Part shown: positions 19,837-63,922 of the stretch, in pieces
Layout of the letters: each line of letters starts with the position of its first letter
Numbering within the stretch: position 1 is the first letter of the stretch
Sequence record: NC_054905.1
Length of the DNA stretch: 64,000 nucleotides
Strand: one strand, 5' to 3'
Source of the DNA: Enterobacteria phage Kha5h
The notes under the pieces: model-generated
The model's database searches: none
What the model was told of the DNA's origin: nothing
The model's input: only the letters and a program-made list of their open reading frames with translations
Translations under genes and position numbers: made by a program

Positions 19837-21538
<1,702 letters not shown>

Positions 21539-32753: not shown

Positions 32754-32783
32754 GGGACCTTCGGGTCCCTTTAGTTGTTTTTA
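32754..32783 (+). terminator. intrinsic terminator after gene 23
   Basis: GGGACC-TTCG-GGTCCC hairpin followed by TTTAGTTGTTTTTA. Confidence 0.7.
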
Positions 32784-48242: not shown

Positions 48243-48246
48243 CAAT

Positions 48247-48264
48247 GGGGACCTTTTGGTCCCC
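48247..48264. terminator. terminator between gene 54 (plus) and the convergent minus-strand block
   Basis: GGGGACC-TTTT-GGTCCCC followed by ATATTTTTATTT. Confidence 0.65.
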
Positions 48265-48270
48265 ATATTT

Positions 48271-48561
48271 TTATTTACGGAATGAAATAAAAGCAGCAAC
48301 TGAAGCAACTAAACTGTCTTCAATATAAACTTCAATTTTTACCGGAGCTTCTGACTCAAATTTACCTGTTACTACACCTTGGAAAATGCTTTCAGTCTGT
48401 TCTGGCTTTGAAAAATTTTCAGAAGGAAAAATTCCGAACTTTTTATCTGTTCCAAAAATTTTGATAAATTCATCATAAACTGCTTCATTAAAAGCGTTAT
48501 CAGCAGGAATAACGCCTTCAACTACAAGTTCTTGACCTAAAAAGCGTAAAGAAGATTTCAT
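48271..48561 (-). CDS. hypothetical protein (position of T4 alt.-3)
   Basis: 96 aa; early-promoter-like repeat cassette directly upstream. Confidence 0.55.
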   Translation of the reverse strand: MKSSLRFLGQELVVEGVIPADNAFNEAVYDEFIKIFGTDKKFGIFPSENFSKPEQTESIFQGVVTGKFESEAPVKIEVYIEDSLVASVAAFISFRK

Positions 48562-48568
48562 TTTGTGT

Positions 48569-48622
48569 TCCTCATGTTATGTCAGTAAGATTACTATAAC
48601 ACAACACGAGGGACTTGTAAAC
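48569..48622 (-). repeat. 54-bp repeat copy A (promoter-leader-RBS cassette)
   Basis: 53 of 54 nt identical to 63869-63922; ends 8 nt upstream of the 96-aa ORF ATG. Confidence 0.75.
48593..48621 (-). promoter_or_regulatory. early-promoter-like element within repeat copy A
   Basis: Minus strand GTTTACA then 17 nt then TATAGT, followed by a conserved leader and GAGG. Confidence 0.45.
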
Positions 48623-50679
48623 TACATCTTGAACTTTTTAGACATTCCGTTGATGTTAACCAAAGAAGCCAAGATTTGAGAAACTTCGTTTTCCTCTTCT
48701 TTTGATTCTTCTACAAGGAATTGATTAAACCCAGCCATTGGACGAACTTCACCAGTTTCCATTAGATGATCGCCATCATATACCGATTCTTCTAATTGTT
48801 CAGAAGGAGGAACGATTGTGCCTTCGATTAGATACTTGTTATAAGCAGTTTCTTTCATCATGTACGTGCTTACTTTATTAATCTTCAACAAAATTCCACG
48901 CGGTAGAATAACTTCAGCTTCTGATGGAAATCCTGATAAATGACCTGGAACGATAACTTTGATTCGTTCAGCCCCTTTAATTACCATACCTACGCTAGTT
49001 TCAGCATCTTCATTAGCATATGTAGAATGACTACCCATATGCATCAAATCTTCTGCATCAACGGAACCTTCTCCTTCACCAGAAAATACTGCGCCGGAAT
49101 CATCTAGAGCCATATAGTTTTTACCATGCTCACCGAAGATATTTGGTTTAAGCGATGTGGATACGAAGTTCTTGAAATAGAACATTTTATTTTCAATATT
49201 ATGACGTAAAGTTTTAAAGGTAACTTCTTGTCCGCGATAAAGCGTAGTTCCTGGAGGAAGAACTGAACCTTTAGCAAATGCAGAATCCAACGTCTCGATG
49301 TGCTTAATAGCTCGTTCCATATATTCTTCACGGGTAGAATCTGGTTTACCCAAAAGGAACGAGTTCATTTCAACATATGAATCTGCACAATAATCTTCAA
49401 TTACATCAGATTCAGCTTGAGTTAATCCTTTTGGAGTTACTTCAGTGCTTGCGTATTCATATGCCTGGGCAGCAGATTCATTAATCAATTTATAAATGCC
49501 ATTCATTACAAATTGAATAATAGCTGTCTTTTCATCTGGCGTAGCTTTAGAACCTTTAACTAAATCATTGATAATTTTCTTAATAACATCAAAGCTATTA
49601 GAAATATTAATATCAGCAAGATCGCTTAAAATTTTATCAGTTTTATAATCAAAGAATTCTTTATTCTTTAAATATTCTTGAGAACCTTGATATGTTATAT
49701 CGCTCTGCAACTTGATAGATGGATCACGTAAACGTGCATGGGCCAATGCAATATGATTTCGGAAGCTTTCTAGTTCATAATCGTTAGATTTAAAACTAGA
49801 AGCACTTCTCATACCACCGATAGCTCCTTTGCCGAAGTTGGAACCAATCTGAATAACGCCAGAGTTCATTGGTCCTTCTGCTTTATATACCGGAACTTTA
49901 GATTCAAACTCTTGATATTTCTTAGCGGCGAAGCTATCGCCCTGGAGTGAGGCATCGACAGTAGAATATTGAGCTTGCGCTGCTAATCGACGACTAATTT
50001 TAGTTTTCTGAATAACAGCTTGATCCGTGCGCTTATCATTTTCTAAAGCAATAGAAGCAGCAACAGCAACAGCTTTAGGAACAGCATTACCTGTTTTAAC
50101 ATCTACATAAACATCACCAACCTTTGATTCAACTTTTGTGAATAACTCAGTTGAAATAGGAGGTACACCTGGAATGTCTTCTAAATTGGCATTTTTACGG
50201 TAAACCATAATATATGCGTACTTTTTATCATAGTCCCAGATTTCCTTTAAAAGAACATATCGACCTGCTCCTTTAGTACGTACTAAACGGTCAGCAATAA
50301 CTTGCATTTGACGAGCTGCGCCATTTGTTTTACTCTTTAGTACGCGGAATAGGCATGCGTCGATTTTATACTGCTTCATTGTTTGAAGAGCAGTATCAAA
50401 AACAGCATTAATGACGCCAATTGGATTTCCACCCAAGTTTCTAAGCTTAACCAGCGATAATTTCTCGTTGACACCTATCATTACGATATGCATCATTTTA
50501 TCGCCTGGCTTAACGTTTTTATTCGTATCACCACCAGAGGTGTATGTACAAAATCTAAATCCAGGAAGCACGCTTTCTTCGCCGGCTTGAATAGCAAAAA
50601 TTTGTGGTATTTTATGCTTAGGATTTAAGTTAACAACCGGCGCCGAAGCGCCGTCAAATAATTCTGTAATAAGTTCCAT
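48622..50679 (-). CDS. Alt-family ADP-ribosyltransferase paralog (685 aa)
   Basis: Shares the MELITELFD N-terminus and C-terminal motifs (YRG..., FVSTSL, EAEVILPRG) with the adjacent 698-aa protein; 3-nt gap from the upstream paralog. Confidence 0.8.
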   Translation of the reverse strand: MELITELFDGASAPVVNLNPKHKIPQIFAIQAGEESVLPGFRFCTYTSGGDTNKNVKPGDKMMHIVMIGVNEKLSLVKLRNLGGNPIGVINAVFDTALQTMKQYKIDACLFRVLKSKTNGAARQMQVIADRLVRTKGAGRYVLLKEIWDYDKKYAYIMVYRKNANLEDIPGVPPISTELFTKVESKVGDVYVDVKTGNAVPKAVAVAASIALENDKRTDQAVIQKTKISRRLAAQAQYSTVDASLQGDSFAAKKYQEFESKVPVYKAEGPMNSGVIQIGSNFGKGAIGGMRSASSFKSNDYELESFRNHIALAHARLRDPSIKLQSDITYQGSQEYLKNKEFFDYKTDKILSDLADINISNSFDVIKKIINDLVKGSKATPDEKTAIIQFVMNGIYKLINESAAQAYEYASTEVTPKGLTQAESDVIEDYCADSYVEMNSFLLGKPDSTREEYMERAIKHIETLDSAFAKGSVLPPGTTLYRGQEVTFKTLRHNIENKMFYFKNFVSTSLKPNIFGEHGKNYMALDDSGAVFSGEGEGSVDAEDLMHMGSHSTYANEDAETSVGMVIKGAERIKVIVPGHLSGFPSEAEVILPRGILLKINKVSTYMMKETAYNKYLIEGTIVPPSEQLEESVYDGDHLMETGEVRPMAGFNQFLVEESKEEENEVSQILASLVNINGMSKKFKM

Positions 50680-50682
50680 GAT

Positions 50683-52779
50683 TTATCCTTGAACGAACTT
50701 GTAAGGCATGTTTGTAATATCTATGCAAGACGCAATAATTCCAAGAGATGATTCGACTTTCTGTTTAACATTTGATGAAACAAATGATGCAAAATCAACT
50801 CTGTCTTCTATTTCAATATCACCTGTCATTGCAACTACTTCGCCGGTTTCCATTAAACGGTCTCCGTCATAGATTACCGATTCGGTGAGCTCTTCCGTGG
50901 TCATAACTTCAGCTTGAATGAGTTTTGTATTATTAGATGTTGTTCCGTCATTATTAGAAGCATCAGTTATTTTATTAACTTTGACCATCAATCCACGCGG
51001 TAGAATAACTTCAGCTTCTGTTGCTATTCCGAGACTTCCTGGATATACAACATTAACTTTATGAGCTCCATCAATTGCCCATCCTATTTGAACTTTAACG
51101 TATTCAGGATTTTCTTTATACGCTCTTATTTCGTTTGGATTAATAGTTATTCCTTCTTCATTTTTATCAACTGTTAATTCATTGCGAGCTTCTGGTTCTA
51201 AAAGACCAATACCAGCATGTGTAATTCCAAAACGTCCAAAAATGATAGGAGTTAAAGAAGTAGATACAAAATTTCTGAAGTAGAACACTTTATTTTTAAC
51301 TAACGCTTCATATATAGGAGCAGTCATACTTTGAGCACGATAAACTGTAATGCCTTCTGGTATACGGTCACCATTTTCAAAAGCTGAATCTAAGTTATTT
51401 ATAGCAGATTCAATTTCTTTTTCACTCATTACATCATATCGTTCTGGATTGTAACGACCTAAAAGAAGATTATTGATGTCAGTATATCCTGAACCGCAAT
51501 ATTCTCTAATGCCACGCTTTTGTGATGGAGTATATTTAGAACCATCGCGGGCAATAGTAATATCAATCATTGGACCAGCACCAATTCCAGAAAAACTGTA
51601 AATCATTCGTTTGAGGAATTTAGTTTTTGCTGCGTTCCAGAAATTTTTAGTTATTTCTTCCCAGACTTCATCTGGTTGTCCTTTACGATTTTTATTATGA
51701 TTAGCAAGCCATTTATCTTTATAATCTTCAAAGAATTGATTTACAGCTGCTGCGTATTTCTCTAAACATTTTATTGAAGTAGTTGGTTCATTTTTAATTG
51801 CATTAAAAATTACTTCTTTAATTTTTTCTGAAACTTCACCGACTTGACTCATTGGAAAGAATTTATAATCATAGTGAAGTTCATCTGCCGTTCCTTCAGC
51901 AATAATTTTTGCTGCCTTTGTTTTAGAAGCTAATGAATTAATTCCAATTTTCATTTCTTCTGCTTCGGGAATTAAAGGTGCAGTAGCTGGTTTATTAAAA
52001 TTAGCTGCTGTAGATTCATACTTCTGGAATAATTCACTTTCAAATCTAGAAGATTCCAATGACTGACTTTGTGCAATTGCTCTACGTGAAATTTTAACTT
52101 TAACGATTACAGCTTGGTCAGAACGTTTATCATTTTCTTGCGCAATAGATGCTGCAATTGCCTCATTTTTAGTTACTTGAGCTCCAGTATCTTTATTGAT
52201 ATAAACATCGCCGACTTTCGATTCAACTTTAGTAAAGAGCTCGGTACTAATTTCCGGAACTCCTGGAATGTCTTCTAGTGATACATTTTTGCGATGTATA
52301 AGAATATATGCATACTTTTTATCATAATCCCAGAGTTCCTTAAGAAGGACGTATCTGCCACCTGAACGACTACGGATAAGTCTATCAGCAATAACTTGAA
52401 TTTGTCGAGCTTGACCAGCGGTTTTAGACTTAAGAATACGGAGCATACAGGCATCAATTTTATACTGACGCATTGTTTGCATTGCAACAGTAAAAACTGA
52501 ATTGATATAATTAATTGGGCTTGGACCAAGACCTTTTAATTTAGCAATTGAACCTTTAGCAGTTAATGTAAAAGGAACAATATGCATCATTTTATCGCCC
52601 ATCTTTAAATCGCGATTAGTATCACCTCCAGATGTATAGGTACATAAACGAAAGCCTGGCTGTTCAATTGCATCATCAACGTGAACTGAAAAAATTTGCG
52701 GTATTTTCTTCTTTGGATTTAAGTTTGTAATCGGAAGAGTAGTATCTTCGTCAAATAATTCTGTAATAAGTTCCATCAT
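50683..52779 (-). CDS. alt: Alt ADP-ribosyltransferase (head-packaged, injected)
   Basis: 698 aa; motifs VYRAQS, FVSTSL, TEAEVILPRG; TATAAATA 21 nt upstream; adjacent to gene 30 as in T4. Confidence 0.8.
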   Translation of the reverse strand: MMELITELFDEDTTLPITNLNPKKKIPQIFSVHVDDAIEQPGFRLCTYTSGGDTNRDLKMGDKMMHIVPFTLTAKGSIAKLKGLGPSPINYINSVFTVAMQTMRQYKIDACMLRILKSKTAGQARQIQVIADRLIRSRSGGRYVLLKELWDYDKKYAYILIHRKNVSLEDIPGVPEISTELFTKVESKVGDVYINKDTGAQVTKNEAIAASIAQENDKRSDQAVIVKVKISRRAIAQSQSLESSRFESELFQKYESTAANFNKPATAPLIPEAEEMKIGINSLASKTKAAKIIAEGTADELHYDYKFFPMSQVGEVSEKIKEVIFNAIKNEPTTSIKCLEKYAAAVNQFFEDYKDKWLANHNKNRKGQPDEVWEEITKNFWNAAKTKFLKRMIYSFSGIGAGPMIDITIARDGSKYTPSQKRGIREYCGSGYTDINNLLLGRYNPERYDVMSEKEIESAINNLDSAFENGDRIPEGITVYRAQSMTAPIYEALVKNKVFYFRNFVSTSLTPIIFGRFGITHAGIGLLEPEARNELTVDKNEEGITINPNEIRAYKENPEYVKVQIGWAIDGAHKVNVVYPGSLGIATEAEVILPRGLMVKVNKITDASNNDGTTSNNTKLIQAEVMTTEELTESVIYDGDRLMETGEVVAMTGDIEIEDRVDFASFVSSNVKQKVESSLGIIASCIDITNMPYKFVQG

Positions 52780-52799: not shown

Positions 52800-52807
52800 T
52801 ATTTATA
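52800..52807 (-). promoter_or_regulatory. late promoter box (minus strand) for alt
   Basis: Plus-strand TATTTATA 21 nt upstream of the 698-aa Alt start. Confidence 0.6.
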
Positions 52808-57522: not shown

Positions 57523-57549
57523 TTTATTCTCCTTTGTTTGTGTAAGATA

Positions 57550-57579
57550 ATACTATCACAAAGGAGCTATACTGTAAAC
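57550..57579 (-). promoter_or_regulatory. early-promoter-like element upstream of the 110-aa ORF
   Basis: Minus strand GTTTACA then 17 nt then TAGTAT, directly after the 57610-57627 terminator. Confidence 0.4.
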
Positions 57580-57603
57580 AACTTTATGCAATCTTTGGAA
57601 AAT

Positions 57604-63017: not shown

Positions 63018-63367
63018 TTAGAAAGGTCCTGGATGTCTTCTGCGAACTTGTTGAAGGAGTTGTTGATTTGTTTTTCAACCAATCCTGGCTTATGAGCCAC
63101 CACATCCGCCTTCTTTGCGTCTTTGCGCAGTTTTTCATTTTCACGCTCAATAGCAGCAATTGCCTCACGATTTTTATTATTCATCGCATCAATATAATTA
63201 TACTGAATTCGCAAATTATTTAATGCTAAAGCGTTTTCATTGGCCGTTTTTGTAATTTCTACAACAGACGTTTCTAATCTTTCAATTTTATTTTTTAAAA
63301 TTAAAGAAGTTCCGCCCAATGCAATTACAATTAATAGCAAGCCTGCTGTCGTATTACTTAATTGCAT
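63014..63367 (-). CDS. pseT.3: inner-membrane i-spanin (N-terminal TM helix plus coiled coil)
   Basis: 117 aa; TM segment GLLLIVIALGGTSLIL followed by a charged coiled-coil region. Confidence 0.65.
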   Translation of the reverse strand: MQLSNTTAGLLLIVIALGGTSLILKNKIERLETSVVEITKTANENALALNNLRIQYNYIDAMNNKNREAIAAIERENEKLRKDAKKADVVAHKPGLVEKQINNSFNKFAEDIQDLSK

Positions 63368-63861
63368 AAAGTTTTAATAACCTCTATAATATCGTCTTGA
63401 GAAAGACCGTTAATTAAAATATGATGTTCAGCCGGAGATTTAGAAATTTTAAAGCATGCCTCAACATCTTCTGCCATATCCGATGCGCTACGATTTGGAT
63501 TACTAATTCCAAGACGATGTTTTCCCGTTAAAGGATTAACGATGATATAGCATTTACAGTTGTTAATATGAACATTAGGTTGAGTCTGATTAATGAACAC
63601 ATCACAATCATATTTCGCAAGCTGATTTTCTAAAAAGACTTTCATCTCCTCAACCGCATCAGGAAGCATATCACGGGCTTGCTCAAGACGACGATTTCGG
63701 TATTCTTTAATGGTCGTTTTCCGCTTGACTTGCTTAGCTAAATCTTTCTTAAGATCGGTGATATATCCAACTCGACGATTTCCTTTGAATACAGAAATCC
63801 CATCTGTAGTATCACCGTATGCTTCAACGACCATTTCAGTAGTAATAAGCTGCAAATCCAT
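63358..63861 (-). CDS. alc: Alc, inhibitor of host transcription elongation
   Basis: MDLQLITTEMVVEAYGDTTDGISVFKG... (167 aa from the second ATG); early-promoter-like cassette upstream. Confidence 0.85.
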   Translation of the reverse strand: MDLQLITTEMVVEAYGDTTDGISVFKGNRRVGYITDLKKDLAKQVKRKTTIKEYRNRRLEQARDMLPDAVEEMKVFLENQLAKYDCDVFINQTQPNVHINNCKCYIIVNPLTGKHRLGISNPNRSASDMAEDVEACFKISKSPAEHHILINGLSQDDIIEVIKTLCN

Positions 63862-63868
63862 CATAAAG

Positions 63869-63922
63869 TCCTCATGTTATGTCAGTAAGACTACTATAAC
63901 ACAACACGAGGGACTTGTAAAC
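63869..63922 (-). repeat. 54-bp repeat copy B (promoter-leader-RBS cassette)
   Basis: 53 of 54 nt identical to 48569-48622; immediately upstream of alc. Confidence 0.75.
63893..63921 (-). promoter_or_regulatory. early-promoter-like element within repeat copy B, upstream of alc
   Basis: Same sequence as 48593-48621 apart from one mismatch in the leader. Confidence 0.45.

Follow-up and report, generated by a model that had tools for sequence, protein, structure and literature searches.

Promoter-early stem-loop (PeSL) cassettes have been described in T4-type phages as small, repeated intergenic modules in which an early promoter is overlapped by a stem-loop and followed on the 3′ side by a Shine-Dalgarno sequence and a start codon (Arbiol et al. 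2010, PMC2839356; Comeau et al. 2014, PMC4122927). At the T4 genes e, soc, 49 and I-TevI, long transcripts that begin upstream fold so that the Shine-Dalgarno sequence and/or the AUG is held in a helix, and a promoter located in the DNA of the 5′ strand of that helix gives rise to a shorter RNA that lacks this strand and is translated (Uzan and Miller 2010, PMC3014915). The early promoters of T4 have themselves been described as having the order UP/−35/TGn/−10 (Hinton 2010, PMC2988021). Here we consider a 54-nt repeat in a 64,000-nt stretch of DNA from Enterobacteria phage Kha5h (NC_054905.1; ‘the window’ in what follows). We propose, with a probability of about 0.72, that each of its two copies is a complete intergenic module of the T4 type, consisting of a strong sigma-70 early promoter, a ribosome-binding site and an RNA hairpin predicted to mask that site in read-through RNA.

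The window is a Tequatrovirus (T4-like) genome: approximately 500 phage records match the region around copy 1 at 90–100%, and phage KFS-EC3 is 100% identical to it over 601 bases. A few records that carry other host names match as well. The 32-kb record MG010123.1, ‘Staphylococcus phage SAJK-IND’, is 99.5% identical to the T4-like sequence of the window, and a few ‘Pseudomonas’ and ‘Serratia’ phage records likewise match it; these are probably mislabelled or contaminated entries, or entries with loosely recorded hosts. The preliminary description of this DNA had drawn attention to a near-identical 54-bp element repeated some 15.3 kb apart, each copy directly upstream of the start of a minus-strand gene, and this description proved accurate (Table 1). 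The repeat, which is family D9 in a repeat scan of the window, is exact at the first site and has one mismatch at the second (53/54 identical), and it found no match in 100 dinucleotide-preserving shuffles of the window. The single difference is T/C at plus-strand position 23, inside the tetraloop of the hairpin discussed below. Read on the minus strand, both copies contain GTTTACA, 17 nt, TATAGT, a leader and GAGG, as had been noted, with a TG adjoining the −10 hexamer; GAGG stands 8 nt before the ATG of alt.-3 and 5 nt before that of alc (the T4 annotation starts alc at the second ATG). On this strand the first base of the repeat is the G of GTTTACA and its last is the A that follows GAGG, and these edges are sharp because the flanks are unrelated on both sides of both copies. 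It had been allowed that the copies themselves might turn out to be unrelated once their flanks were properly aligned; the flanks are indeed unrelated, yet the 54-nt core is not. At both sites the cassette makes up essentially all of the intergenic space: copy 1 shares the G of its GTTTACA with the end of the alt stop codon, TAG (48624-48622), and the T4 cassette at alc follows the stop codon of rnlA at a distance of 3 nt.

Table 1. Positions in the window of the two cassettes, their parts and the neighbouring features.
Feature	Position	Strand	Basis or remark
Cassette copy 1	48569..48622	-	entire alt/alt.-3 junction
Cassette copy 2	63869..63922	-	rnlA/alc junction
−35 hexamer TTTACA	copy 1 48616..48621; copy 2 63916-63921	-	promoter scan
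−10 hexamer TATAGT after TG, at top of predicted hairpin	copy 1 48593..48598; copy 2 63893-63898	-	
Predicted transcription start, A 7 nt after −10	copy 1 48586; copy 2 63886	-	promoter geometry; in T4 about 123057 and 136300
Predicted hairpin 5′ arm (CCUCGUGUUGUGUU, AU bulge, AGUA): spacer and −10	copy 1 48592..48611; copy 2 63892-63911	-	
Predicted hairpin 3′ arm (UACU GACAUAACAUGAGG): leader	copy 1 48570..48587; copy 2 63870-63887	-	
Shine-Dalgarno GAGG in 3′ arm	copy 1 48570-48573; copy 2 63870-63873	-	
alt.-3, 96 aa, gene after copy 1	48271..48561	-	ORF list and T4 synteny
alc, 168 aa from first ATG, gene after copy 2	63358..63864	-	ORF list and T4 synteny
Late-promoter motif TATAAATA, upstream of the two alt paralogs	52800..52807	-	motif search; T4 alt has the same
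Two-way terminator-like hairpin between convergent gene 54 and alt.-3	48245..48266	.	first downstream of alt on minus strand

The bare 54-mer is found at 995 places in 498 phage records, two per complete genome, and in Tequatrovirus only. An apparent third copy in phage G28 was discarded, as the flanks of a longer query had matched there and the bare cassette gives two places. The tetraloop difference is not specific to a locus: other Tequatrovirus genomes have G at both sites, and some pairs of copies are identical (54/54). Across five genomes that were compared, paralogous copies differed at 0–4 of the 54 positions, no more than orthologous copies within Tequatrovirus, and no variant common to both copies of one genome was seen. 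Upstream of copy 1 the window holds two full-length alt paralogs in tandem on the minus strand (48622-50679 and 50683-52779; 685 and 698 aa), which account for the repeat families D3, D8 and D15 at a spacing of about 2.1 kb. T4 has a single alt and the short remnants alt.-1 and alt.-2, which its annotation terms an old partial duplication, and it appears that T4 has lost most of a second alt copy.

On its motifs, each copy is a predicted sigma-70 early promoter of the T4 type. Both have TTTACA and TATAGT separated by 17 nt, within the 17 ± 1 nt spacing of −35 and −10 boxes, with 10/12 matches to the consensus, and in both TG stands before TATAGT (TGT-TATAGT), which gives an extended −10 (TGn). 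The −35 box, TGn and −10 box of T4 early promoters are therefore all present, with an A-rich stretch upstream; the cassettes differ from the published pattern in that the −10 box is TATAGT, not TATAAT, and that the upstream region is outside the repeat (PMC2988021). The A-runs upstream of the copies (CTAAAAAG... and AAAAAATTTATC...), where an UP element may or may not be represented, are within the coding ends of alt and rnlA and differ between the copies. In the RefSeq record of phage Lutter the same 30 nt are annotated as a promoter. Omics data for T4 place alt.-3 and alc early at both RNA and protein level, alt late, and rnlA early as RNA and late as protein; a DksA/T4 RNA-seq paper does not mention alt.-3 and alc. 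The reading of the hexamers as a promoter in the preliminary description is thus borne out by the T4 early-promoter pattern in both copies, the Lutter annotation and the early expression of alt.-3 and alc in T4.

The sense RNA of the cassette is predicted to fold as a single long hairpin of 18 bp (22 bp at alc). In this fold, cassette positions 12–25, which belong to the promoter spacer, pair with positions 40–53, the part of the leader that includes the Shine-Dalgarno sequence; in the middle of the stem GUUGUGUU lies opposite ACAUAAC, and the top is formed by a 4-bp extension (AGUA/UACU) and a tetraloop, where both the −10 hexamer and the predicted start (A, position 37) are situated. By geometry this start is 3′ of the entire 5′ arm (positions 12–31), an arm that is present only in RNA begun upstream. 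Opening the stretch that runs from the Shine-Dalgarno sequence to the AUG is predicted to cost 13–18 kcal/mol in read-through RNA, compared with 2–4 kcal/mol in RNA from the predicted +1. The sense 54-mer has a folding energy of −22 kcal/mol (z −5.8 and −5.4) and none of 200 shuffles folded as well, whilst the opposite strand reaches just −12.8 kcal/mol (z −2.3) because four G·U pairs turn into A·C. This specificity of the predicted hairpin for the sense strand suggests that selection has acted on the sense RNA and not on the DNA. Variants of the stem within Tequatrovirus mostly preserve pairing (G·U to A-U, C-G to U·G, U·G to U-A), the exception being one copy with two changes that break terminal and upper-stem pairs. 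The conservation of the leader had initially been attributed to a shared regulatory or RNA-processing signal, which was right in spirit and incomplete: the leader would owe its conservation to forming the 3′ arm of a hairpin that has the spacer as its 5′ arm and buries the Shine-Dalgarno sequence.

With the models of Rfam 15, no part of the window reached the gathering score, and the surroundings of copy 1 gave nothing at E <= 1. Cleavage by RegB was ruled out, as the cassette is without GGAG. An operator for a DNA-binding repressor was also ruled out, since the inverted repeat is imperfect as DNA (A·C mismatches) and pairing is kept although the stems of different genera, and of different T4 promoters, have different sequences. 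At both sites a mini-ORF of 4–5 codons (48559-48575 and 63859-63875, minus strand) runs from the AUG inside AUGAGGA to a UGA that overlaps the gene start (AUGA), in spite of the unrelated sequence after GAGGA; Dhaka-, Winkler-, Kanagawa- and Gaprivervirus, as well as an Acinetobacter phage, have the same arrangement before alc or alt.-3. Chance (Shine-Dalgarno spacing together with A-rich second codons) may account for it, or it may be a start-stop element.

For the hairpin to form, RNA has to reach the cassette from upstream. The late-promoter motif at 52807-52800 is the likely source of late read-through RNA entering copy 1. The terminator scan gave no terminator-like site on the minus strand between this motif and alt.-3, nor at the end of rnlA, so that both late alt mRNA and RNA reading through from rnlA would be expected to run into the cassettes. 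Beyond copy 1, the terminator-like hairpin at the end of alt.-3 is a perfect, G+C-rich stem of 9 bp (AUGGGGACC UUUU GGUCCCCAU), and related GACC...GGUC hairpins occur at 32756, 34114 and 36662 (family D7). Under the proposed mechanism, RNA from the cassette promoter would begin at about the A 7 nt after TATAGT, within the 3′ side of the hairpin, so that the early transcript would lack the 5′ arm and its ribosome site would be free. RNA from upstream, whether late alt mRNA that enters copy 1 or read-through from rnlA that enters copy 2, would carry both arms and fold, and would be poorly translated for alt.-3 or alc. As masking would occur in read-through RNA only, translation of alt.-3 and alc would be tied to their own early promoter.

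Relatives of alc and alt.-3 were found by tblastn on a phage collection (IMG/VR searches with Alc and Alt.-3 returned close relatives only), and the rnlA-alc junction was compared in 15 other phages from 14 genus-level lineages. The masking design was found upstream of alc in eight other genera sampled, among them Gelderlandvirus, Karamvirus, Moonvirus, Jiaodavirus, Dhakavirus (two phages), Winklervirus and Bragavirus. In these genera TTTACA is followed after 16–17 nt by TAnnnT, and the spacer opens with an anti-Shine-Dalgarno and continues as the complement of its own leader. The stem sequences vary by genus (CCAUUUGGUU/AACCAAAUGG, CCUCAUCAG/CUGAUGAGG, CCUCUCAUUUUU/GAAAAUGAGAGG), as does stem length, from 9 to 17 pairs. 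Masking is not obligatory at alc, since the ribosome site is predicted to be free in Mosigvirus, where the promoter has a small hairpin confined to the spacer, and in Kanagawavirus and an Acinetobacter phage, where a hairpin surrounds the −10. Neither the masking design nor a hairpin was found at the rnlA-alc junction of Aeromonas and Cronobacter phages, and that of Gaprivervirus is interrupted by an alc fragment. In the Gaprivervirus phages RZ and VR20 this fragment is an additional, shortened ORF resembling alc (locus positions 124-390 and 2520-2753) that separates rnlA from alc; a G+C-rich hairpin and a −10-like box lie in front of it, and the full alc is without an early promoter of its own.

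Across these genera the two predicted hairpin arms co-vary. The energy of the duplex between spacer and leader has a mean of −19.9 kcal/mol when both are taken from the same genome and −10.85 kcal/mol when they are combined across genera, and none of 20000 permutations reached the observed value, a test in which independence is overstated because the genera are related, though the difference is a large one. The cross-genus energies of around −11 kcal/mol come from the shared pyrimidine-rich part: a pyrimidine-rich run just after the −35 box is common among T4 early promoters, and it may also serve promoter strength and so inflate the apparent anti-Shine-Dalgarno complementarity. In six sequences in the same register, RNAalifold gave 16 pairs, four of them changed on both sides. 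The Tequatrovirus anti-Shine-Dalgarno is 3 nt further from the −35 box than in the other genera, and both an alignment of all 13 cassettes and a model-based alignment put the Tequatrovirus stem in the wrong register; covariation was therefore judged by the comparison of duplexes within genomes and across genera.

Cassettes of similar design were sought in T4 itself, where positions 1-100000 and 117000-168903 were scanned for early-promoter-like sites followed by a gene start. Among the 35 candidates, ten (dexA, modB, nrdC.8, regB, denV, e.8, alt.-3, 30.8, alc and ndd.4) had a difference in opening energy between the long and the short RNA of at least 8.6 kcal/mol, the largest being that of alc (17.1 kcal/mol), and the other 25 did not exceed 5.2 kcal/mol. 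At T4 dmd, mobD.2, ipI, ipII, 30.7 and motB, among other sites, the hairpin predicted around the −10 stops short of the ribosome site. When a covariance model was made from the alc cassettes of six non-Tequatrovirus phages only, it matched the T4 denV, regB, dexA and 30.8 promoters at E < 1e-3 and both copies in the window at E of about 0.013. Conservation of the leader is usual for this class of promoter, since leaders are also shared within families of other T4 early promoters (including family D4). These results suggest a tentative generalisation, to which we give somewhat less than even odds: the nesting of early promoters in hairpins of this masking kind may be a general, so far undescribed layer of T4 timing control, with such genes translated only from their own immediate-early transcripts and silenced on middle and late read-through RNA.

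Further cassettes of this class were seen in passing. The window has three other early-promoter cassettes on the minus strand (321-374, 687-740 and 57539-57592), with ATTTCACAAAGTTGTTTACA upstream of all three. Those at 321-374 (T4 trna.4) and 687-740 (ipI) have −10 hairpins with compensating stems (UAGGGU/ACCCUA vs UGAUGAGG/CCUCAUCA), and in that at 57539-57592 (T4 30.8) the ribosome site is predicted to be masked. In T4, the cassettes at 20611 (dmd) and 57989 (mobD.2) are a pair about 80% alike in which the ribosome site is free; they share a 15-bp stem around the −10 with compensating changes (GCUGACAAGACUAU/AUAGUCUUGUCGGU vs GUUGACAAGAUUAU/AUAAUCUUGUCAAC).

The hairpin could instead act mainly as a transcription terminator or attenuator for alt or rnlA RNA, the burial of the ribosome site being incidental. 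The helix is long and stable, and the PeSL stem-loops of RB49/phi1 cut lacZ expression like a strong terminator (PMC2839356, PMC4122927). We nevertheless consider this unlikely: the stem is not followed by a U-run, as copy 1 continues ACACAAAAUG (ACACAAAA) and copy 2 CUUUAUGAUGG (CUUUAUGA), neither copy is among the 17 terminator-like sites of the scan, and in nine genera the end of the 3′ arm coincides exactly with the Shine-Dalgarno sequence, which termination would not need. The same regularity bears on a role in RNA processing or stability, whether as a site for RNase III or as a hairpin that protects the 3′ end of the upstream mRNA and separates it from the next cistron. A near-continuous helix of 18–22 bp, about two turns, at a cistron border would suit such an element; however, stems of down to 9 pairs in other genera are short for RNase III, and pairing of the Shine-Dalgarno sequence is the constant feature, which makes this reading very unlikely.

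It is more improbable still that the copies merely reflect recent copying of a strong promoter, the leaders being alike from youth and the hairpin having no function. The low paralog divergence, no greater than that between orthologs in the genus, would fit such an event, but the presence of two copies per complete genome among the 498 records places the copying before the radiation of the genus, and neither the spacer-leader covariation across genera nor the strand-specific structure would be expected from it. The preliminary description had also raised the possibility that the direct repeats mediate deletion of the interval between them, and they could equally be regarded as recombination sites for its duplication or circularisation. 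The copies are in the same orientation and 54 bp long. Singer et al. 1982 reportedly put approximately 54 bp near the shortest homology with which T4 recombines efficiently. Pairs of PeSL cassettes do form circles in RB49/phi1 (PMC2839356, PMC4122927). Deletion is thus physically possible, but as a heritable event it is irrelevant here: the 15.3-kb interval holds gene 30 (DNA ligase), gene 31, rIII, cd, pseT and alc, so that its loss should be inviable, a 15-kb duplication would be expected to exceed the headful, and the 995 places in 498 records keep to two per complete genome with no variant found. Recombination across the interval as the function of the repeat is accordingly scarcely credible, and the combination of early promoter and masking hairpin is the reading that we retain.

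How the promoter-hairpin module came to be present twice can be approached from the alt.-3 locus of other genera. In Gaprivervirus VR20, Karamvirus AS6 and Mosigvirus-like NHEP10, alt.-3 has a different early promoter with a small spacer hairpin (of the GCACAAGGAAGUGC type), which in VR20 and AS6 adjoins the alt stop codon, and the end of its leader in all three, ACATGAGGAAAACAAAATGAAA, equals the Tequatrovirus alt.-3 leader from the 3′ edge of the repeat onward. The Tequatrovirus alc cassette aligns closely with that of Dhakavirus. As the other genera have a different promoter at alt.-3, the Tequatrovirus alt.-3 copy was probably derived from the alc cassette. The hairpin design would then be ancestral at alc, and in the Tequatrovirus ancestor the alc cassette would have replaced the resident early promoter of alt.-3, with exchange points in motifs already common to both sites, GTTTACA and ACATGAGGA. 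Nearly every base of the cassette would be constrained by promoter, stem or ribosome site, and this constraint could account for the identity of the copies; ongoing conversion would not be needed. A separate instance is seen in the Mosigvirus-like phages NHEP10 and PhAPEC2, in which alc and alt.-3 both have the spacer-hairpin promoter, with the leader ATCAACAACA(C/T)GAGGA. The two cassettes of NHEP10 are similar, not identical, and have compensating changes in the spacer hairpin; the presence of one cassette type at both loci suggests swapping. If the proposed gating is correct, the transfer from alc to alt.-3 would amount to gates moving as units, bringing unrelated genes under the same control. 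The pair of copies would provide a dated case in which one entire promoter-leader module took the place of another at a fixed junction, and it is to this process that gene shuffling in T4-like phages has been proposed to be due. In annotation, such repeats would best be read as units of promoter plus RNA structure, not as bare promoters or deletion hot spots.

In structure the cassettes resemble the PeSL: each is a compact unit of a promoter and a predicted stable stem-loop that ends with a Shine-Dalgarno sequence and start codon, the unit is present in two copies that agree at 53/54 positions, and related cassettes are found elsewhere in T4. The type of cassette at alt.-3 and alc varies by genus between syntenic flanking genes, and PeSL too are proposed to move between loci by recombination in their conserved parts (PMC2839356, PMC4122927); the breakpoint of the T4 alt.-1/alt.-2 difference beside copy 1 is outside the cassette. 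They differ from PeSL in several respects. The PeSL stem-loop has been treated as a terminator or attenuator, with masking of the ribosome site unmentioned (PMC2839356, PMC4122927), whereas the stem here ends on the Shine-Dalgarno sequence without a U-run; PeSL stems of PST/T4 lie just upstream of the promoter, whereas this stem encloses the −10 and the predicted start; and PeSL flank a small dispensable ORF, whereas the present copies are 15.3 kb apart across essential genes. The cassette type may thus be regarded as already known (PeSL-type, with masking as at e, soc and 49), and its generalisation across T4 early promoters may be the new part.

The likeness to e, soc, 49 and I-TevI lies in the fate of two RNAs as predicted here from sequence: in RNA begun upstream the Shine-Dalgarno sequence is predicted to be paired, in a helix that covariation supports, and RNA from the nested promoter is predicted to be free. 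At those genes the nested promoter is late and early translation is blocked, whereas here it is early, and it is translation from late and read-through RNA that would be blocked; no late-promoter motif TATAAATA is present within or adjoining either copy. If the masking works as proposed, it would explain how an early gene, alt.-3, can lie directly behind the late gene alt with no terminator between them and be expressed only early. Beside the textbook ‘late-only’ hairpins of T4 there would then be an ‘early-only’ counterpart, the mirror image of the arrangement at e, soc, 49 and I-TevI.
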